Position numbers and translations under genes: made by a program. From an uncultured bacterium (GTDB lineage: Bacteria; Chlamydiota; Chlamydiia; Chlamydiales; Rhabdochlamydiaceae), in contig CAZEYJ010000201.1 of assembly GCA_964516795.1 (NCBI GenBank), positions 1-37,345 on the forward strand: 37,345 nt of DNA, written 5' to 3'. The notes below the pieces were generated by a model. It saw nothing but the letters and a program-made list of their open reading frames with translations, had not been told where the DNA came from and made no database searches. Positions 5,579 to 33,245 of the stretch are shown piece by piece; position 1 is the stretch's first letter; each line of letters starts with the position of its first letter.

Positions 5579-5589
5579 AGAAAAAAACT

Positions 5590-5663
5590 CGCACCGAACA
5601 GGACTTGAACCTGTAACCACCCGGTTCGAAGCCGGGTACTCTATCCGATTGAGCTATCGGTGC
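5590..5663 (-). tRNA. tRNA-Arg (anticodon UCG)
   Basis: Hand-folded cloverleaf on the minus strand: acceptor GCACCGA/TCGGTGC, D arm GCTC..GAGT, anticodon stem CCCGG/CCGGG with loop CTTCGAA, T arm ACAGG-TTCAAGT-CCTGT. CCA is not encoded. Confidence 0.9.
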
Positions 5664-5788
5664 AAAATAGAGTCTTAAAGTCGCTCAGTATAGCCACCCA
5701 AAGAAAAAAAAACAATCAGATATTAAGATAGACGCCTATACGTTGACTTAAATATTTAATTTTCTTTACAAATCTTATCTTTCTTCAG

Positions 5789-5970
5789 CCTAAGAGACTG
5801 CCTGCGAATTTGGTTTCTGTCGATTTTTCGGTTCTTTTGAGCCGATTTTTGATTCTTTTTCAGGGGGTAATATCAACATTACGTATATTACCCCCTGAAA
5901 AAGAATCAAAAATCGGCTCAAAATAATCCAAAAACTCGACGAAATCCGAATCCGCAGACAGTCTCTAAGG
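5789..5970. repeat. Long imperfect palindrome (about 85-nt arms), member A of a dispersed intergenic palindromic repeat family
   Basis: The left arm cctaagagactgcctgcg...gtcgatttttcggttcttttgagccgatttttgattctttttcagggggtaatat pairs with the right arm atattaccccctgaaaaagaatcaaaaatcggctcaaaa...cgcagacagtctctaagg. The inner stretch of about 39 nt (5835-5873 / 5885-5923) is perfectly complementary around the loop caacattacgt. Confidence 0.85.
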
Positions 5971-11079: not shown

Positions 11080-12312
11080 ATGAGCTCACACTCCATCCAA
11101 AATTTAACGCTGAATTTCGCTTCTTTCTATTTAGAGAAGCAAGCGCAGCTGCCCGGCGCAAGAAGCCGATTTTTCTCGAAATGCGGACAGTATTACGATG
11201 CCAACTCACCGATGAAGAGCTTTTTAGAAAACGACCTATTCTACCGAAAAGCAAGAAACCTCGATCAACTGTTCGGCCATGCGCCCGGTTCCATGCTCCG
11301 GCTTGAGCCCTTTAAACGGATGTACATCAACCGATGGAAAGATCTGCGCAACACGCTTCAGAATGGCCCTGGCATTTTTCCAGATGCAGAACTGGATAAA
11401 AAAGTCCGAGAGTTCATCATCGCCCACAAACATTTTGTCCTAAAATTTATCGAAGAAACAAAGACCAATCGAAAAGATTCTTCAGAAGCAGCCGAAATGA
11501 ACAATCCCCGCATGTTAAAACAATTTTACCTAGCGATTGTTCAAACAGCTCTTCAAATGCCGGATCGAGCGCAAGAGATCTTCACGCTGATCGAAGAAAC
11601 AGATCCCCTCCTTTTTGATTTCATCCCTTATCAAGCGATTTTGAACAGCCTTGACGAACCCTCCCAAGCAAGCAAGCCTCAGCCTCACGCTCCCAATCCC
11701 CTCTCAGATAACAAGCCCCCTGAAACAGATCAATTACTTCAATCCATTGCTGAACCGATCTCTGCTTGGAGAGAAGATTATCAAAAACTTGAAAAGACAG
11801 ATCAGCTTTCTCTGCGCCAGGCAAAACCCCTCCTTGCCTCAAAGCAAAACGCTCAAAGAGAACATGACGATGGTCTGACAGAAGAGGCAAAACGGCTCTT
11901 TATCCAGATCGGCGAAGGGATTTATCGCTGTAGAAACCTGGATCCCGTCTCATTTTCCGCTGTGTTCTCAAGAATGTTCCAATTTGTCTCTTACGACTTC
12001 AGCCAAGCGGCTAACCTGGCTGATTGCGATGTTTTCAAGCATCTTTCAGAAGAAATCTCGAACGAAAATGCCCTGCTGTTTTTGAAAAACCTCCCAGCCG
12101 AGCAGTATGAGAAATTCTTAAAAAATCGGCGGTTCCCTTTTCTTCCGAACAACCAAACCGACTTAAACGAATCATGCTACCAGCATAGAAATTTCTATCG
12201 GATCGTTTCAATTTTCTCGCTGGCTAAGGAACTTGGAAAGCTATTGGATAAAGAATGCGAAAGGGGGGACTCGAACCCCCAAGAGGAAAACCTCACTACC
12301 ACCTCAAAGTAG
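11080..12312 (+). CDS. Orphan protein with no TM segment and a central Pro/Gln-rich linker; effector-like
   Basis: 410-aa ORF with an ATG start. I recognise no family motif. The last ~57 nt (ECERGDSNPQEENLTTTSK*) are the antisense of tRNA-Leu. Confidence 0.6.
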   Translation: MSSHSIQNLTLNFASFYLEKQAQLPGARSRFFSKCGQYYDANSPMKSFLENDLFYRKARNLDQLFGHAPGSMLRLEPFKRMYINRWKDLRNTLQNGPGIFPDAELDKKVREFIIAHKHFVLKFIEETKTNRKDSSEAAEMNNPRMLKQFYLAIVQTALQMPDRAQEIFTLIEETDPLLFDFIPYQAILNSLDEPSQASKPQPHAPNPLSDNKPPETDQLLQSIAEPISAWREDYQKLEKTDQLSLRQAKPLLASKQNAQREHDDGLTEEAKRLFIQIGEGIYRCRNLDPVSFSAVFSRMFQFVSYDFSQAANLADCDVFKHLSEEISNENALLFLKNLPAEQYEKFLKNRRFPFLPNNQTDLNESCYQHRNFYRIVSIFSLAKELGKLLDKECERGDSNPQEENLTTTSK

Positions 12313-12339
12313 CGCGTCTACCAATTCCGCCACTCTCGC
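12256..12339 (-). tRNA. tRNA-Leu (anticodon GAG), class II with long variable arm
   Basis: Hand-folded on the minus strand: acceptor GCGAGAG/CTTTCGC, D arm GCG..CGC with GAATTGGTAGA, anticodon stem CTACT/GGTAG with loop TTGAGGT, variable arm GAGG-TTTT-CCTC, T arm GGGGG-TTCGAGT-CCCCC, discriminator A. Confidence 0.9.
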
Positions 12340-12511
12340 ACAGGGTGCTCCGGTAATGGATACCAGAGTTGAAAAAGAAAGAAAATCCTACTCGATCGAA
12401 TAAATCTGTTCAAGCAAGAAATCTCTAAAAAAATCAATTGTCAAAAATAACAATTCAGAACGCAACTCTGACAAGTTGCAGAATAAGAAGAAATCAGATA
12501 TAAGAAGGCTC

Positions 12512-13306: not shown

Positions 13307-13433
13307 TTTTAGAAACTGCCCTAAAACCCGCTTTGCAAAAAAAACCACAGATTCGGCTCAAAATCGGATCTTTAGGACAGCTTTTTAGACCGCTCCCGCC
13401 ATCCGCTTGCAGAAAAGAGAACAGCGAGAATAA

Positions 13434-13592
13434 ACCGAACGTGTCTCAAAAATTGGATTTTCGGCTGCGCCAAAGCCTCGGGGTTAAAATTTTTCAGAGG
13501 GAGCTGTATTAATGCAATACAGCCCCCTCTGAAAAATTTTAACCGCGAGAACTTTCGCGTTGCCCAAAACCAATTTTTGAAACACGTTCGGT
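13434..13592. repeat. Long imperfect palindrome (member C) between convergent genes; partial extra arms lie just upstream (13345-13433)
   Basis: accgaacgtgtctcaaaaattggattttcggctgcgccaaagcctcggggttaaaatttttcagagggagctgtatt, then loop aatgc, then aatacagccccctctgaaaaattttaaccgcgagaactttcgcgttgcccaaaaccaatttttgaaacacgttcggt. It shares the ...tttttcag(a/g)gg... core layout with elements A and B. The segment 13345-13433 carries attcggctcaaaatcgg and cagaaaagagaacagcgagaa, which resemble arms of A and B. Confidence 0.8.
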
Positions 13593-13609
13593 ATAAGCAT
13601 CGGTATAAA

Positions 13610-13948: not shown

Positions 13949-14046
13949 AAAACACCTTCCTTGTTTATCTGCCCCAACAATTGTTAGGGATTTGCAAAGA
14001 ATTCTTTGTATATTTGTTAATATTTTTTTGACAAGCAGTTTTTTCC

Positions 14047-14116
14047 GAAGAGAGAAAAATCGGCTCAAAAGAACCCCAAAATTGACAAGAACTTTAATTG
14101 ACGACAGGCTCTAAAA
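14047..14116. repeat. Solo arm (half-element) of the palindromic repeat family
   Basis: gaagagagaaaaatcggctcaaaagaaccccaaaattgac...gacaggctctaaaa aligns with the right arms of A (aaaaatcggctcaaaataatccaaaaactcgac...cagacagtctctaagg) and B. No partner arm is present. Confidence 0.6.
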
Positions 14117-17933: not shown

Positions 17934-18932
17934 ATGAAGAATAAAGCTTATTCTCTCCTAATGATGGCAGGCCTGTTGGTCGGCGGATGTAATCATGATC
18001 GTCCAAATGATGAAGTGATCTCTCAGCGTTACATTCATAAATACGGTTACGCTGTGTCAAAAGCGGAATGGGACGAGAGGGACTATCCCGGCCAAGTCAT
18101 CACCAATATGCGCAACGGGATCACGGTCACAGCGACCTACGAAGCTGGAAAGCTCCACGGTCCGACGACCTATACATTCCCCCATAGCCAGACCGTCGAA
18201 CATTTCTATCTGTACAACCAAGGGGCAAAAGTCAAAGAGATCCACTATAACCCCATGGGCATGCCGGTGCAAGAGCGGGTCCAGCTATCCCCTTCCCGCC
18301 ATGCAGTCACTATGTGGTATAATGAAGGCTCTCCGCTATTGATAGAAGAGTTTGTTGGAAATGAGTTGCTCGAAGGACAATATTTCACTTCTGACAATGA
18401 GATCGAATCGCGCGTTGAAAAAGGACATGGCGTCCGTATCCAACGCAACGCAAGCGGCCAGCTCCTTGCTAAAGAGCAAATCGAGCAAGGCTTTACAACA
18501 AGGCGAGAGACCTTCCACCCCAACGGCGCCCCTCAATCAATCGCCTTCTTTCAGCAAGGACTTCTACAAGGGGAAAAGCGATCCTTTGCCCCTAGCGGCG
18601 AACCTGTCGCCATTGAAGAATATGTCCAAGGCAAATTGCACGGCGTCTCTACCTACTTCAATAACGGGAACAAATATCTCGAGGTTTCCTATCTCAACGG
18701 ACAGAAGAATGGGATCGAAAGGCACTATGTCGATGGCGATATTCTCACAGAAGAAGTCTCCTGGGAAAACAATCTCCGGCACGGCTCTGCGATCGCCTAT
18801 ATCGATGGGAAAGCCCAGCAGCGCTGGTTCTATGCAGGGGAAGAAGTCAATCAAAGGAAATTTGATGATCTCAACCGCCTTGACCAGATGATTGCACAAA
18901 TTTCCCCTGACGCAAAAGGTCCGCGCAGATAA
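17934..18932 (+). CDS. MORN-repeat-variant (YwqK-like) lipoprotein
   Basis: The signal plus lipobox is MKNKAYSLLMMAGLLVGGC. Repeated units follow: GKLHGPTTYTFPHSQ, GLLQGEKRSFAPSGEP, GKLHGVSTYFNNGNK, GQKNGIERHYVDGD, NLRHGSAIAYIDGK. It lies 20 nt after pheT, with a GAGG Shine-Dalgarno sequence. Confidence 0.8.
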   Translation: MKNKAYSLLMMAGLLVGGCNHDRPNDEVISQRYIHKYGYAVSKAEWDERDYPGQVITNMRNGITVTATYEAGKLHGPTTYTFPHSQTVEHFYLYNQGAKVKEIHYNPMGMPVQERVQLSPSRHAVTMWYNEGSPLLIEEFVGNELLEGQYFTSDNEIESRVEKGHGVRIQRNASGQLLAKEQIEQGFTTRRETFHPNGAPQSIAFFQQGLLQGEKRSFAPSGEPVAIEEYVQGKLHGVSTYFNNGNKYLEVSYLNGQKNGIERHYVDGDILTEEVSWENNLRHGSAIAYIDGKAQQRWFYAGEEVNQRKFDDLNRLDQMIAQISPDAKGPRR

Positions 18933-18936
18933 AAGG

Positions 18937-19097
18937 CTGTTGACGAACTCAGGTTCAGTCGATTTCTCGGTTCTTTTGAGCGAATTTTCGTTTCCTTTTC
19001 TGAAGGCAATATCAACTTCCGCATATTACCCTCAGAAAAAGAAGCGAGAACTCGCTCAAAAGAACCCGAAAACTGACAGAAGCTAATTCTGAAAACG
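18937..19097. repeat. Long imperfect palindrome, member B of the same family as 5789..5970
   Basis: The left arm gtcgatttctcggttcttttgagcgaattttcgtttccttttctgaaggcaatat pairs with the right arm atattaccctcagaaaaagaagcgagaactcgctcaaaagaacccgaaaactgac. The arm and the loop region (aatatcaac..atatta) align closely with element A. Confidence 0.85.
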
Positions 19098-20282: not shown

Positions 20283-20351
20283 AGATGAAGTGGCAACACT
20301 CGGGCAAAAACCACCGTTTTTTTTCACAAACCCGAGTTTTTGCAGTTCCTT

Positions 20352-23056: not shown

Positions 23057-23893
23057 ATGACAAACAAGCTTAAACTCTGGGATGCTTATCCTCAATGGGA
23101 AGATGCGGAAAAAGCCTGGGATGCCCAAGCTCAGCAAGCAGCCCGCTCCCACCCCCTCAAACAGCTTTCCAGCCTTCCCCAGATGCCGGGAATGACCGCC
23201 GACACCGCCAAACACCTCAAATGGAAAAGCCTCAACTACATCATCAGGCACGATAAAAAAAACATCCTTCCAAAATACTTTTTTAAACACCCTCTCCGCT
23301 ACACCCTTGCCTTCCTCAAATCAGCTCTCCGCAAGGAGTCCTACAGCCGAGACGACGATTTCTTCTTTTACGGATGCCGCGGCTTAAAAGACTTTGAACA
23401 CCTTCTCACAGGTCCAGACACCCTTCTTGTCTTAGGCTTTTCCTACTGCCATAAGCCCCATGAATGCCCCTCTCAACGATTCACACCCGATTGCATCCAC
23501 GATCCCAACCATCCCGTCTGCAGGCAGTGCTTCATCGGCAAGGCGGTCCACGCCGCGCCGCAGCAAGCTACGATTCCCCTGTTCATTCCGACGATCCATT
23601 ATATCGGCGAAAAAATTTTTGAGATCGTCGACAAGAACCCATCAAAACAGGTCCTCTTCCTTATTACCGCTTGTGAAATGACGCTAAAAATGTTCGGCGA
23701 CTGGGGAAACATGGTCAATATCAAAGGGATCGGCGTCCGCCTCGACGGACGGATCTGCAACACGATGAAAGCCTTTGAACTTTCTGAAGCAGGGATCAAA
23801 CCGGGGCTGACCGTCGTCCTGCCCCATACACAGCGCAAAATCCTCTCCCTTCTCAAGAGCCGGAGATCAAATGCTTCCTGCGAAAAGGTTTAG
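23057..23893 (+). CDS. Conserved Cys-rich hypothetical protein (possibly DUF116-like)
   Basis: 278-aa ORF. The Cys cluster FSYCHKPHECPSQRFTPDCIHDPNHPVCRQCFIGK resembles the DUF116 signature as I recall it. The family name is tentative. Confidence 0.55.
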   Translation: MTNKLKLWDAYPQWEDAEKAWDAQAQQAARSHPLKQLSSLPQMPGMTADTAKHLKWKSLNYIIRHDKKNILPKYFFKHPLRYTLAFLKSALRKESYSRDDDFFFYGCRGLKDFEHLLTGPDTLLVLGFSYCHKPHECPSQRFTPDCIHDPNHPVCRQCFIGKAVHAAPQQATIPLFIPTIHYIGEKIFEIVDKNPSKQVLFLITACEMTLKMFGDWGNMVNIKGIGVRLDGRICNTMKAFELSEAGIKPGLTVVLPHTQRKILSLLKSRRSNASCEKV

Positions 23894-24800
23894 GCTTGTC
23901 AGCCTTGACAAAAGGCCTAAGCCGCGGCGCCGATTCACACTCAACGGAGCAGCACCCCAAGAACTTCTCAGCGCACTCGGGACAGCATAAAAAGAGCTCG
24001 TTGCAGTCCATGTTGGCGCAATTGTGATAAGTATCGGAAGGCTTATGGCAATGCCTGCAAGCGCTGATCGGCTCCACATCCTGGCCATCGATCGACACGG
24101 CCAGGCGGTCGTCAAAGACAAACAACTTCCCCTGCCACAGCTCGCTTCCCTCTTTAAGGCCATAGTTGATCACCCCCCCATCGAGCTGAAACACCTGCTC
24201 GAACCCCTCTTTTTTCATCAGGGCCGAGTAGAGCTCGCAGCGGATCCCTCCGGTGCAGTACATCATCACCTTCGTCTTTGCAGGGTCCCTCTCTTGCTTC
24301 AACTGGCGGGCATAATCGGGAAATTTGCGGAACGTATCGAGCTTAGGCAGTTCTGCCCCTTCAAAATGGCCGATCTCCCACTCATAATCATTGCGCACAT
24401 CGATCAAGATCGTGTTCTCATCCCGATTTTGAAGCATCCGCTTCCACTCTTCCGGAGAGACATGCTGCCCCACCTTGGAAAAATCAACCTTCTCGTCCAT
24501 GGCAACGATCTGCTGGCGGTATTTGACCGTTGCGCGGGGGAACACATGCTCAGGATAAGTATGAATTTTAAACACCACCTCGGAAAAGCGAGGATCGCTT
24601 TTCAACCACTGCATATAGGCTTCGGCGGCATCTAGAGAAGCGCTCATCTGCCCATTGATCCCTTCTTCAGAAATATAAACGCGGCAGGTGATGTCGTGCG
24701 TATTAACAAACTCTTGATGCTTAGCCACCTCGACGTGCGGATCTTCGATAGGAGTAAAAATATAATATGCCAAAACGTAATACATTTCTTGTTGATTCAT
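23853..24800 (-). CDS. trhO: Rhodanese-domain tRNA uridine(34) hydroxylase (UPF0176/YceA family)
   Basis: The N-terminus YYIFTPIEDP, the rhodanese active-site loop MYCTGGIRCE, and the C-terminal Cys cluster CRHCHKP...CANMDCNELFLCCPEC all fit. The track start at 24812 is TTG; the first ATG is at 24800. Confidence 0.85.
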   Translation of the reverse strand: MNQQEMYYVLAYYIFTPIEDPHVEVAKHQEFVNTHDITCRVYISEEGINGQMSASLDAAEAYMQWLKSDPRFSEVVFKIHTYPEHVFPRATVKYRQQIVAMDEKVDFSKVGQHVSPEEWKRMLQNRDENTILIDVRNDYEWEIGHFEGAELPKLDTFRKFPDYARQLKQERDPAKTKVMMYCTGGIRCELYSALMKKEGFEQVFQLDGGVINYGLKEGSELWQGKLFVFDDRLAVSIDGQDVEPISACRHCHKPSDTYHNCANMDCNELFLCCPECAEKFLGCCSVECESAPRLRPFVKADKPKPFRRKHLISGS

Positions 24801-24985
24801 AGGGCGACCCAACTCTGTTAAATTTCAAAAAATATAGCTCACCTCCGCAGATCCCCGCAATGAAAATAGTTCAGCGGGCTTTTCTTGCCATGCAAGAAAA
24901 ACAAATAGCTCAAAATTATTTCTTTGCATCAGCGCCAATATATCTTATGTCGGAAACACGGCACTACATGCCCGCGTTTCCCGCA

Positions 24986-25061
24986 CCCGGTTCGCGACCA
25001 AGGTCTTCTCACCTGCTTCGCACTGCGAAGGTCCACTGGACCTTCTCGTGTCTCCGCAGCC
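24986..25061. repeat. Copy 1 of a 76/77-nt direct repeat in a 680-bp gene-free region
   Basis: cccggttcgcgaccaaggtcttctcacctgcttcgcactgcgaaggtccactggaccttctcgtgtctccgcagcc. It contains the hairpins cttcgc-act-gcgaag (25016-25030) and gaaggtcc-act-ggaccttc (25027-45). Confidence 0.85.
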
Positions 25062-25203
25062 TTCTTGAGCCTCATCTCACTTCGCCAAATCGTTTGCTCG
25101 GATACGAGCTGTGTCTAACACTAGCTCGCCGCCCTTTGGGCTATCCTGCGCTACGATTTTGCTTTGCGATTTGAGGCCGTCGACTGCTCGCAGCGTTCAG
25201 CAT

Positions 25204-25280
25204 CCCGGTTCGCGACCAAGGTCGCTTCACCTGCTTTGCACTACAAAGGTCCTCTGGACCTTTTTCGTGTCTTCGCAGCC
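25204..25280. repeat. Copy 2 of the 76/77-nt direct repeat (offset 218 nt)
   Basis: cccggttcgcgaccaaggtcgcttcacctgctttgcactacaaaggtcctctggacctttttcgtgtcttcgcagcc. A 1-nt indel relative to copy 1 argues against coding. The hairpin aaaggtcc-tct-ggaccttt (25245-25263) keeps its pairing through a G:C to A:T double change. Confidence 0.85.
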
Positions 25281-25492
25281 GCCCGGACTTCGTCTCGGTT
25301 AGGCGGGCTGAAGCTCACGTCAACTCGCAGGGCGATTTTTTAATCTCTAAGCCAAATGCTTTAAGCTTGCTTTTCATAGACAAATTCTCAATAAAGCAGA
25401 CAAAGCCCTTCTTAAGATCAAGTTGACCTCGAAGAACAGTGCACAGCCTAACCGATTCAAAAAAATTACAAAGTCGAATTCAGTCCAGGAGC

Positions 25493-26158
25493 CTACTTTT
25501 TAATGTTCTGGATAGAGGAAATTAACTTGTGAAATTTTTCTTGATGATGAGTCCATGATCTTCCGGAAACGATATTTTCAAAATATTCTTCAATCGTATT
25601 TTTGGGCGGTGTTGTCAATGGCTGACATCGAAGGCCTTTTTGAACGTAGACCTCAGCCTGTTTCAGGTCTCCAATTTCTAAGTACAATTCAGCAATAGAT
25701 CGGTACAAGATAGGCCAATTAGGAGTATAATCGATAGCCAGTAAGTACAGATTAATAGCCTCACCTATATTCTTGGTTGTATCTATGACAATAGAGGCGA
25801 GTAAAGAAAGACATTCTGGTCTATAGGGATCAATTTTCAAAGCCTCCATCAAAAGTGTTCTAGCCTTTTCATAAGCACAAAAGTCGTGGTAATAGCAAGT
25901 AGCAAGCCAGAACCGAGCTTCGACATTTTGAGGGTCCAAAGCAATCGCTTTTGCGAGATATTCAATTGCTTTTTCATCTTCGTGAAAAGGCTCCCATGAA
26001 AGAACGCCAAGCTGGATCAGAACTTGAACATCATTTGGAGCATCTTTAAGCACAGCCTCTAAATAACGGCGATATGCCTCATCCAAAGCAAATAACTCTG
26101 ATGTTTTAGCTCCACTAATCGAAGCTATCTGGTATTCCCTTTCTAATAGCTTGTCCAT
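25493..26158 (-). CDS. Tetratricopeptide (TPR) repeat protein
   Basis: 221 aa with several 34-aa TPR-like units: AIEYLAKAIALDPQNVEARFWLATCYY, ARTLLMEALKIDPYRPECL, AINLYLLAIDYTPNWPILYRSIAELYLEIGDLKQAEVYVQKGL. Confidence 0.75.
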   Translation of the reverse strand: MDKLLEREYQIASISGAKTSELFALDEAYRRYLEAVLKDAPNDVQVLIQLGVLSWEPFHEDEKAIEYLAKAIALDPQNVEARFWLATCYYHDFCAYEKARTLLMEALKIDPYRPECLSLLASIVIDTTKNIGEAINLYLLAIDYTPNWPILYRSIAELYLEIGDLKQAEVYVQKGLRCQPLTTPPKNTIEEYFENIVSGRSWTHHQEKFHKLISSIQNIKK

Positions 26159-26361: not shown

Positions 26362-26982
26362 ATGGCTCGATATACTGGCCCAAAGAACCGCATTGCTCGA
26401 CGATTTGGAGCGAACATTTTCGGACGTGCGCGCAATCCTCTCTTGCACAAACCTAATCCTCCCGGAATGCACGGTGCAAAACGGAAGAAAAAATCAGACT
26501 ACGGCCTTCAGCTTGAAGAGCAACAAAAACTCAAAGCGATCTACGGCCTTATCCCACACTCTCAGCTCGTCCGCTACTACAAAGAAGCTGTTAGAGCAAA
26601 AGGGAACACTCCAGCTCTCTTCATCGAGCGCTTAGAGTGCAGACTCGACAACATGGTCTACCGAATGAAGCTTGCGCCAACGATCTTCGCTGCGCAGCAG
26701 CTCGTTTCCCACGGCCACATCCTCGTCAACGGGAAAAAAGTCGACCGCCGTTCATTCTTTGTTCGTCCAGGAATGACCGTTTCGATCAAACCAAAATCGC
26801 AGCAAGTGCCGATCATCAAGCACAGCCTTGAAAACGCAGCGATCGCAACACCTGAGTACATCGCCCTCGATGCACCAAAATGCTCAGCGCAACTGCTCAT
26901 TTCCCCAGCTATCGATCAGATCCCACACCCACTTCCACTCAACGTTCCTCTGATCTGCGAGTTCTTGGCCCACTCCAACTAA
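26362..26982 (+). CDS. rpsD: 30S ribosomal protein S4
   Basis: [16 protein letters not shown]...[17 protein letters not shown]...[49 protein letters not shown] Shine-Dalgarno sequence is present. Confidence 0.97.
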
Positions 26983-32204: not shown

Positions 32205-33245
32205 TTAAACCTGGGCAAAAACCATCGAATTTTTTCGCGAAAGCGAGTTTGCAATCCCCTCTTTTGTTTGAAAAATCTCATTCTGCCTTTGGACAAGATG
32301 CCAGACCGTCTCTTTCATCCGTCCGATCTCGCTTAAATCATTCCGCCGTCTTTGCTCGATCATTTTGCCAAGCTCTTCGACATTGAACAACGTCAGTCGG
32401 GGATCTTTTCCAAGCAGAGGATCTACCGTTCTAGGGACACTGAGATCAAAGACCAGCTTGGTCCTCAACGTTTCAGATCCGACCTGTTCCGCTTTCAGAA
32501 CATAATCAGAATGCGTGGTGCCGCAAATGACCACGTCATACTCGGTCCAACTATCCAAGTTAGACCAATCATAAACAGGCAGCTCCCATTCTTTAGCCAT
32601 CTCCTCTGCACTCATAGCGCATCGAGTGCACAGGCTCATCGAATCGACCTTTTTCTGTTTGAAATAAGCAATCGTCCTCCGATTGATCTCAGAATTGCCA
32701 ATGAACAAAACCTTCTGCTTCCTAAAATCCTCGATAAACCATTGGCCCGCCTGAAAGATCATCCCCGAAAGAGTCGCCTCCTTTGGAAGGACCACTCTTG
32801 CCGAACGGATCTGCTTAGCGATCTTTAAACACTTTTGAAAAAGAAAGTGCATGCAGCTTGGAAGAGAATAATAAAGAACGGTCATCTGATAAGCGAGCTT
32901 GACCTGCCTCTGAATTTCCGATTCCCCTAAAATCACACTGTCAAGTCCGGATGTCACCATGGCCAAATGAAAAAAACAATCGACCCCGAAATAGGTGTAC
33001 AGCTTGTGCTCAAAAGGCTCCAACACCTCTTCTCTCAAGCAGCTTAAAATCTCCGTGTGCGCTTCAGCCAGACCTTCCGCGCTGAAATAAATTTCAGTCC
33101 GGTTGCAGGTCGATAAAACCACGCAGCACAGCTCTTGGACAATCGGAGTCTGCTTAGAAAACTTGCGAAGGCAGACCCGAGCCAAAGTTTCTCTTAAGGA
33201 AAGCTCTGAAGACTTATGGTTGATCCCCAAGACACCAATGCGCAT
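32205..33245 (-). CDS. hemA: Glutamyl-tRNA reductase
   Basis: MRIGVLGINHKSSELSLRE...VVLSTCNRTEIYF (catalytic Cys motif), GESEIQRQVK, and an NADP-type region VLFIGNSEINRRT. I start at ATG 33245 rather than the track start at 33293. Confidence 0.88.
   Translation of the reverse strand: MRIGVLGINHKSSELSLRETLARVCLRKFSKQTPIVQELCCVVLSTCNRTEIYFSAEGLAEAHTEILSCLREEVLEPFEHKLYTYFGVDCFFHLAMVTSGLDSVILGESEIQRQVKLAYQMTVLYYSLPSCMHFLFQKCLKIAKQIRSARVVLPKEATLSGMIFQAGQWFIEDFRKQKVLFIGNSEINRRTIAYFKQKKVDSMSLCTRCAMSAEEMAKEWELPVYDWSNLDSWTEYDVVICGTTHSDYVLKAEQVGSETLRTKLVFDLSVPRTVDPLLGKDPRLTLFNVEELGKMIEQRRRNDLSEIGRMKETVWHLVQRQNEIFQTKEGIANSLSRKNSMVFAQV

Follow-up and report, generated by a model that had tools for sequence, protein, structure and literature searches.

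Two hairpin-forming repeats upstream of a chlamydial trhO gene as probable copies of a modular, MITE-like repeat family

Does a pair of structured repeats beside the trhO gene of an environmental member of Chlamydiota mark an RNA locus that belongs to that site, or are the repeats copies of something more widely spread? The question arises from a 37,345-nucleotide stretch of DNA (contig CAZEYJ010000201.1; the whole stretch is called the window below), in which an intergenic spacer at 24813-25492, between trhO and a gene for a TPR protein, holds two direct repeats of 76/77 nt. The original prediction treated this spacer as a candidate structured RNA locus with a switch-like arrangement of hairpins. 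We favor another answer, to which we give a probability of about 0.72: the repeats, here called units, are copies of a ~67-78-nt structured module in a non-autonomous, modular intergenic repeat family of environmental Chlamydiota that resembles miniature inverted-repeat transposable elements (MITEs). The family is dispersed in many copies, four types of carrier element have defined ends and terminal inverted repeats (TIRs), modules are present or absent from copy to copy, copies decay, and the helices covary.

A dispersed and structured unit

With long open reading frames (ORFs) used as a proxy for genes, the spacer is the largest non-coding gap in the window, as had been noted, followed by gaps of 446 nt (which contains the tmRNA gene) and 389 nt. 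Its two repeats (24986-25061 and 25204-25280) are 87% identical across 77 columns and differ by one 1-nt indel (BLAST E = 7e-21), again as described. The impression by eye of a GC-rich and structured spacer was also correct: the units have 57-63% GC, compared with ~49% for the window, and the region folds far more stably than shuffled sequences on both strands (z = -5.4 on the plus strand and z = -6.6 on the minus strand). The first hairpin reads GAAGGTCC-act-GGACCTTC in one repeat and AAAGGTCC-tct-GGACCTTT in the other, with G:C replaced by A:T on both sides, and the second reads CTTCGC-act-GCGAAG versus CTTTGC-act-ACAAAG, with one C:G to T:A change. These compensatory changes stand as they were reported, and the further hairpins that had been read in the sequence are present at 24951-24983, 25097-25110, and 25281-25308. 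In the second hairpin the loop-closing pair has changed as well, to a C·A on the plus strand that corresponds to U·G on the minus strand. The first and second hairpins have the tetranucleotide GAAG in common.

A degenerate pattern was derived from four good copies, taken from the window and from chlamydial trhO loci, and one scan of metagenome contigs with this pattern returned 26 contigs with a unit. A covariance model (CM) built from 29 distinct copies recognizes 37 copies, 32 of them distinct, on 30 sources (metagenome contigs and loci of chlamydial metagenome-assembled genomes, MAGs). The choice that the original prediction had left between a unique locus and a generic repeat is thereby settled by the many copies found. 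In the window, model R1 recovers unit 1 as a 75-nt structured core module at 24987-25061 (minus strand, the probable sense orientation; 95.1 bits, E = 8e-21) and unit 2 as a 76-nt core module at 25205-25280 (minus strand; 94.3 bits, E = 1e-20). One 10.9-kb contig (L106) carries four copies in three different spacers and on both strands, and in L103 two copies lie on either side of one gene. Tandem units occur in L099, where two copies stand 106 nt apart within one carrier (2175-2348), and in L096 (237-495), where two full copies and one partial copy are arranged head to tail; this suggests local duplication besides dispersal.

Every copy is intergenic or at the edge of an ORF. The neighboring genes are unrelated housekeeping genes, encoding Rho, a Ser/Thr kinase, VKOR, TrhO, RseP, Prs, UppS, and CdsA, as well as an ABC-3 permease fused to a DtxR-type repressor domain (ytgC/R-like) and a SecDF of 1499 aa. 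Fusions of the YtgC-YtgR type and giant SecDF proteins are chlamydial traits, and by these we take contigs L106 and L107 to belong to Chlamydiota. Proteins encoded on L102, L104, and L105 are 64-73% identical to those of chlamydial MAG loci. The orientation of the units relative to neighboring genes is mixed (~31 co-oriented and 19 opposite, by crude ORF calls), which argues against an obligatory role within particular transcripts. No transposase was found among the 20 neighboring proteins scanned, and none adjoins any copy. The unit was also searched for in plasmids, phages, and viral contigs, with no match.

The anatomy of the unit is described here on the strand of the model, which is the minus strand of the window. 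The consensus is GGCUGCGRAGA-CAC-GA-[GAAGGUCC NGN GGACCUUC]-GCA-GUG-CGRAGCA-[GGUGA(A)-[stem-loop]-GAACC]GG. Helix P1 is the first hairpin of the original prediction, and its extension CAC/GUG is backed by copy L096b, which has UUU/AAA there and the internal loop closed. P2 is a stem of 5-6 bp that occurs in the versions GCGACC, GUGCCC, GUGUCC, GCGCC, GCAGCC, GCACCC, and GCGUCC·GGGCGC, or in an alternative short form of 2 bp with loops of 3-5 nt; it rests on a GGU/ACC base with tandem G·A pairs, and its loop is CUUG. An optional hairpin, P3, follows the unit directly in ~12 copies, those of the window not included, and combines covarying stems with a G-N-A triloop (GAA, GUA, GGA), as in CCC-GAA-GGG, CCCC-GUA-GGGG, GGCC-GAA-GGCC, and CUUCC-GAA-GGAAG. 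The three helices of unit 2 are all intact (GCGACC-UU-GGUCGC), and the 3' hairpin of unit 1 is partly decayed, with GACC/GGTC alone left. Unit lengths range from 67 to 78 nt and are mutually out of phase; the unit is therefore non-coding, in agreement with the original prediction, and the long ORFs that run across units are read-through artefacts joined to real genes. Two further candidate helices were rejected: GGCUGC/GCAG(G)U, from RNAalifold, has its 5' strand fixed by the search pattern and conflicts with the covarying base of P2, and the alignment shows CUGCG/CGCAG to be disrupted in L083, L093, and L100.

Covariation was assessed in the 29 distinct copies by comparison with shuffles (n = 500) and slid controls. 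In the MAFFT alignment (A1), 89.7% of cells are paired and 7 pairs are double-changed, compared with 3.4±1.1 in shuffles (0/500) and 1-2 in slid controls. The CM alignment (A2), which is biased towards its own structure, has 10 of 20 pairs double-changed, compared with 4.4±1.2 in shuffles (0/500) and 3-4 in slid controls; in the metagenome copies, the 5' half of the unit had been set by the search pattern. Two hairpins covary across the family. The G:C to A:U double change of the first hairpin recurs in 3 of the 29 members, and one further hairpin, which the original prediction had not singled out, covaries strongly. The unit's main hairpin is real and has been selected for as a structure, and constraint acts on the hairpins.

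The second hairpin (CUUCGC-AGU-GCGAAG) is 88.5% paired, has a central G·A mismatch in 10 of the 29 copies, and shows covariation across these copies that is not above that of shuffles (47/500). The GAAG overlap, from which a mutually exclusive switch had been proposed, is real, but with these results the switch itself finds no confirmation. In its favor, a change in column 38 goes along with changes in columns 18 and 48, its two alternative partners, in unit 2, L094, and L096b. The proposal of a structured RNA locus divides in a similar way: its structure is upheld by the covarying main hairpin, but a unique locus it is not, as the unit is multi-copy, lies in both orientations, and adjoins unrelated genes.

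Rfam was compared with the region at gathering thresholds and with a limit of E <= 10, and with seven related loci with a limit of E <= 1; only chance-level snoRNA/sRNA matches were returned, and this check identified no family in the spacer or at the unit copies. Resemblances to SRP RNA, RNase P, and 6S were not confirmed by Rfam. ARAGORN and the Rfam tRNA models found no tRNA or tmRNA in the spacer; tRNA-Arg(TCG) (5589-5664), tRNA-Leu(GAG) (12255-12340), and a tmRNA gene that is cut by the end of the window (36983-37345; Rfam 132.6 bits) lie elsewhere in the window. One of the metagenome contigs with a unit also carries a TPP riboswitch (L093:7775-7869, 77 bits), which has no relation to the repeat.

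Carrier elements of the unit

When copies were aligned with their flanks in three metagenome groups, elements of 230-330 bp with sharp boundaries emerged, each a long imperfect hairpin that has the unit at its tip. Four lineages have the unit at the apex of a hairpin element, with TIRs of 23-57 bp whose sequence differs per lineage; carrier ends read TATACCACGCGCGG…, TATACCCAAATGAC…, TTAACCGGGGCGG…, and GAGGGAATTGCAAAAC…. The TIR starts with TACCACGCGCGGTTAGG… in the carrier of L093 (34 nt, 100% complementary), with TATACCCAAATGAC… in that of L082 (26 nt, 92%), with TATTAACCGGGGCGG… in that of L085 (57 nt, 77%), and with GAGGGAATTGCAAAAC… in that of L010 (23 nt, 100%). Three of the four types are flanked by TA, which stands on both sides in most copies of metagenome groups A, B, and C; this would fit a TA duplication, but TA could instead be part of the element. 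Overall the elements measure 230-470 bp and have no coding capacity.

The copies L082 and L088 are identical over ~250 nt and differ in their flanks, L085, L098, and L099 form a second, near-identical set at different loci, and four group-A copies form a third. Because identical or near-identical copies (L082/L088 and L085/L098/L099) occupy different loci, the carriers have been mobile recently. Other small modules, such as the hairpin ACACGGGGUCCCC…GGGGUGUG, are present or absent among carrier copies. Comparison of the carriers of L083 and L093 reveals 10 differences in one arm, 9 of which are exactly compensated in the opposite arm; the carrier ends either co-evolve or get copied from each other.

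Several repeats of other kinds were seen in the same sequences. A 38-nt direct repeat at 20302-20339 and 32213-32250 of the window (GGGCAAAAACCA.CG..TTTTTTC.C.AA.C.GAGTTT…TGCA.T.CC) resembles one arm of the L010 carrier (…GCGAGGAGTTTTGCAATTCCCTC), and its copies may be solo arms of an L010-type element. A second, unrelated family consists of near-perfect palindromes of ~150 nt at 5791-5940 and 18930-19090, with partial copies at 13338-13364 and 14045-14112; the arms of 50-62 nt are 79-94% complementary (TTTTTCGGTTCTTTTGAGCCGATTTTTGATTCTTTTTCAGGGGGTAATAT and its reverse complement), and one copy lies beside tRNA-Arg. Another long palindrome (13477-13549), with 34-nt arms that are 94% complementary, occupies the spacer 13307-13609. 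At least seven tandem 69-nt repeats at 34154-34705, within the plus-strand ORF 33513-34946, encode 23-residue leucine-rich-repeat-like units and are not an RNA array. Finally, a further palindromic family common to two MAGs was read by eye at L020:3740-3900 and at L027:1-130 and 270-300 (GCAAGGAGGCT…AAAATTTT…GGAGCGARCGACCATTG…CAAGGCGCGAG…); in L020 it forms a ~170-nt hairpin that adjoins the decayed unit.

The composite in the window and its locus

In the window, both units are embedded in one composite repeat of ~470 bp (24879-25341), which consists, in order, of an outer hairpin, a conserved spacer, ATGTCGG with hairpin A, unit 1, pairing arms with apical hairpins, unit 2, hairpin B, and CTCGCAGGGCG with a T run. 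The outer hairpin CTTTTCTTGC-cat-GCAAGAAAA forms the left edge (24879-24900, with a self-complementary match at 24880-24900), and equivalent hairpins (CCTTTCC...GGAAAAGG) lie equally far upstream of three backbone copies in L106 and L107. The conserved left extension TATTTCTTTGcatcAGCGCCaatatATCTT occupies 24917-24946, and BLAST homology to L106 (3428-3614) begins at window position 24917. It is followed at 24947-24985 by the left-end motif ATGTCGG and hairpin A (24951-24983); ATGTCGGGG and then a hairpin open all eight backbone copies. In the central backbone (25062-25204), the arms 25069-25093 and 25153-25177 pair as a 25-nt inverted repeat (72% complementary) around apical hairpins that include 25097-25110, and the central blocks GAGCCTCAYCTC..GCCAAATCG and GCTTTGCGATYTGAGGCC are conserved in L027, L103, L106, and L107. 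The right end (25281-25341) comprises hairpin B (25281-25308), the motif CTCGCAGGGCG (25324-25334), and the T run (25335-25341). The eight backbone copies have in common the right-end motif CTCGCAGGGCC with A and T-rich sequence after it, and CCGGACTTCGTCTCGG is conserved in L027, L106, and L107. Downstream of the composite, CTTTTCATAGAC (25370-25381, plus strand, read by eye) is possibly a target motif or a solo end. It resembles the motif GCTTCCATAGAC, after which the left end (ATGTCGGGG) follows directly in the backbone copies of L106 and L107.

This backbone recurs elsewhere, in pieces or as whole copies and in both orientations, with four copies in L106, two in L107, and two truncated ones in L103; in L106 and L107, two backbone copies stand tail to tail. 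Of the backbone copies, 4 of 8 have the unit at site 1 and 3 of 7 have it at site 2, with both sites filled in the window only. At site 1 it is found on either side of the CCCGCTTG motif, that is, at slightly different insertion points. Since the unit is present or absent at either site, it is a module gained and lost separately from the backbone.

Among the 80 chlamydial trhO loci that were surveyed, three contain unit-like sequences: L010 upstream of trhO, L002 beyond the rpsD terminator, and L020 in inverted and decayed form. In both L002 and L020 the hairpins of the unit are disrupted. The closest relatives (L002, L003, L004, and L020, with TrhO 78-83% identical) have no composite upstream of trhO, and a position upstream in the orientation of the window is seen only in L010 and, decayed, in L027. 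The latter, a Rhabdochlamydiaceae MAG with a TrhO 66% identical, has the same backbone in the same place upstream of trhO, with both units reduced to remnants (GGUCGCG… and GG-AAGAGCGA-GUGCACAAGCAG); its alignment with the window shows blockwise conservation and many indels. Old copies decay, and because L027 has lost both units, nothing at the trhO locus has kept or depends on them.

The trhO gene itself (23853-24801, minus strand) encodes a TrhO-like rhodanese-family protein with the Pfam domains UPF0176_N, Rhodanese, and Rhodanese_C, and probably starts at the ATG at 24801, because a protein of exactly this sequence (315 aa) has been recorded. The best relatives of the TrhO-like protein (61-83% identity) all come from chlamydial MAGs, some of which carry a Verrucomicrobia label. 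The Logan assembly of SRR13076506 includes an identical contig. On the other side, the spacer is bordered by the TPR-protein gene (25493-26158, minus strand), with rpsD (26362-26982, plus strand) beyond it. The sole ORF within the gap (24860-25174, plus strand, 104 aa) crosses the repeats and is probably spurious. Scans of the spacer for sigma-70 promoters and intrinsic terminators found nothing; by eye, a TATAAT box was noted before the copy in L002, and four of ~9 copies have a T run after the composite, neither feature being consistent among copies. Between the SNF2 helicase gene and trhO lies a 278-aa ORF with no Pfam match (23057-23893, plus strand), which overlaps the 3' end of trhO by 41 nt.

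Competing explanations and implications

If the units belong to a MITE-like family, the TIR-bearing carriers would move by cut-and-paste with a transposase supplied in trans, and their TA flanks suggest a system of the IS630/Tc1-mariner type. The module may spread between carriers through its own insertion or by recombination. Its covarying hairpins would be kept because a single-stranded form needs them, for propagation or for tolerance in transcripts; this form could be RNA or single-stranded DNA (ssDNA), with the purine-rich strand, the minus strand of the window, as the presumable sense. The element in the window would then be a passenger of the TPR-trhO spacer and not a regulator made for trhO.

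Several observations weigh against this reading. The sequences examined offered neither a transposase with matching ends nor an empty site, so that TA duplication and mobility in trans remain inferred, and the composite of the window and its backbone have no TIRs. The family is patchy, with 3 copies in 626 kb from 80 chlamydial species and just the two in the 37-kb window (CM with filters off). Across lineages, the core sequence is 85-95% conserved (partly by construction in the 5' half, which the search pattern fixed in the metagenome copies) with nothing common in the carrier arms. A core far more conserved than its arms is the reverse of a textbook MITE and fits either a core selected for a function of its own or one that is independently mobile. 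The strands also differ. The model strand is purine-rich in every full element (G132 C96 A110 T63 in the window), is the more stably folding of the two strands in 13 of 14 elements, and carries the GNA triloops, the CUUG loop, the tandem G·A pairs, and internal loops rich in G·A/A·A; this asymmetry points to a single-stranded active form on the model strand, either RNA or ssDNA. The choice of strand by G·U versus A·C pairs is mixed, as one copy has G·U in P2 on the model strand and one P2 copy and five P1 copies have A·C or C·A there, equivalent to G·U on the opposite strand. Both genes that flank the spacer in the window lie on the model strand, and read-through from the TPR gene would therefore contain both units.

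In another reading, the conserved core would be a functional RNA domain that various mobile hairpin elements carry as cargo. It could mark read-through transcripts for processing or stability, bind a protein, act as a small ribozyme, or serve the element as an RNA required for its own mobility. Such a domain would account for a core conserved between unrelated carrier arms, for the covarying helices, for a sense strand that is purine-rich and more stable than its complement, and for the presence on that same strand, co-directional in the window with both flanking genes, of the optional third hairpin with its covarying stems and G-N-A triloop, the CUUG loop, and the tandem G·A pairs. However, copies lie in both orientations relative to their neighbors, are decayed or deleted at orthologous sites (L027, L002, and L020), and have no Rfam family. 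Mini-hairpins with G-N-A loops are stable in DNA too, and these motifs do not discriminate RNA from ssDNA. We regard such a domain, and likewise any RNA-level or single-strand function of the core's own, as doubtful but worth keeping in view. Slightly more speculative is the idea of a ~75-nt core that hops by itself between otherwise unrelated hairpin transposons of many chlamydial lineages and is conserved across them. It would then represent a new kind of small structured module with a mobility of its own, whether as a functional RNA domain (for processing or protein binding, or as a ribozyme) or as a minimal mobile element of the single-strand type.

The strand asymmetry would also fit the single-stranded intermediate of an IS200/IS605-type transposon, from which the composite, the unit, or both could derive; such elements have unlike end hairpins, no inverted ends, and no target duplication, and are moved by a Y1 transposase, here perhaps with a guide-RNA scaffold. 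The ends of the backbone are indeed asymmetric and well defined (…ATAGAC|ATGTCGGGG with a hairpin, and a hairpin with CTCGCAGGGCC|A) and have no TIR, and the unit has two unlike hairpins, also without TIRs. This origin is nonetheless improbable: no TnpA, TnpB, or RAYT gene was seen beside any copy, the sequences left of the end (ATAGAC, TTATAC, AGAGAC, ATCTT) are similar only and not a fixed tetranucleotide, and other carriers clearly have TIRs and TA flanks. Typical IS608-type ends have hairpins related in sequence, unlike the two end hairpins here. The idea from which the analysis started, a cis-acting RNA unique to this locus that forms the trhO leader as a tandem riboswitch or attenuator with mutually exclusive hairpins, draws on units that lie upstream of trhO and on its strand, on hairpins that are real, and on the joint changes of column 38. 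We consider it very unlikely, and it is already largely refuted by the distribution of copies: most adjoin unrelated genes, the closest relatives have no composite upstream of trhO (in L020 the decayed unit is inverted), and L027 has lost both units, quite apart from the mismatches and unremarkable covariation of the alternative hairpin and the empty Rfam search. Least credible of all is a decayed protein-coding gene with an internal duplication. The 104-aa ORF crosses unit 1 and one frame of the unit is open in several copies, but unit lengths differ by amounts not divisible by 3, a 1-nt insertion shifts the frame of unit 2, which also has a stop codon in the open frame, copies lie in both orientations and are fused to the ends of unrelated ORFs, and conservation between the window and L027 is blockwise with many indels.

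Among known systems, Correia elements (CREE/NEMIS) of Neisseria and other TA-flanked MITEs of the IS630/Tc1-mariner group are likewise short, non-coding, and multi-copy in spacers, have TIRs of ~25-35 bp with TA on both flanks, and form over their whole length a long hairpin that can enter transcripts. The chlamydial sequence is unrelated to them, however, and its host is of a different phylum; its ends vary by lineage around a conserved structured core at the apex, inverted ends are lacking in the composite of the window, and the 20 neighboring proteins scanned include no parent transposase. The REP/BIME/REPIN repeats of proteobacteria are also intergenic mosaics of palindromes and short motifs, with compensatory changes and modules that are present or absent. 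In contrast to these, the alignment of 29 chlamydial copies has no conserved GTAG/CGTC head, the units are twice as long with two or three different hairpins, and no RAYT gene was seen beside the copies, whole genomes not having been searched for one. Rickettsia palindromic elements (RPEs) are comparable in that these palindromes of ~100-150 nt have likewise multiplied within an obligate intracellular lineage and left variously decayed copies, but RPEs often lie in frame inside genes, whereas the chlamydial copies are intergenic or at ORF edges, have lengths that are not multiples of three, and show no sequence similarity to RPEs.

Backbones of the type found in the window, with asymmetric ends, subterminal hairpins, no inverted ends, and a single-strand bias, recall palindrome-associated elements derived from IS200/IS605 and the guide-RNA scaffolds of TnpB/IscB, but no Y1 transposase was seen in the sequences examined, and there is no associated TnpB/IscB, no fixed target motif, and no match to HEARO or other Rfam families. 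With a pair of similar structured units that precede a gene on its strand and have possible alternative hairpins, the arrangement resembles tandem riboswitches or attenuators, from which the chlamydial units differ in having no conserved gene association or orientation, in being multi-copy, and in decaying at orthologous sites.

Environmental chlamydiae are usually portrayed as having compact genomes whose plasticity comes from insertion sequences (IS). For Rhabdochlamydia, IS expansions are known and only IS expansions are reported (PMC9723776). In the literature searched on MITEs and palindromic repeats in Chlamydiae or Rhabdochlamydia, neither the present repeat family nor any small non-autonomous repeats of environmental chlamydiae are described. 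Compensatory changes between two local copies do not amount to a locus-specific RNA until copy number has been checked, and repeats of this kind can break assemblies, mimic structured RNAs in genome scans, and put hairpins into transcripts. For the chlamydiae, the finding means that their spacers carry modular, hairpin-forming mobile DNA, in which, unusually, the core stays conserved while the surrounding transposon arms are replaced. If the core does function in its own right, it would amount to a portable module, of RNA or of ssDNA.

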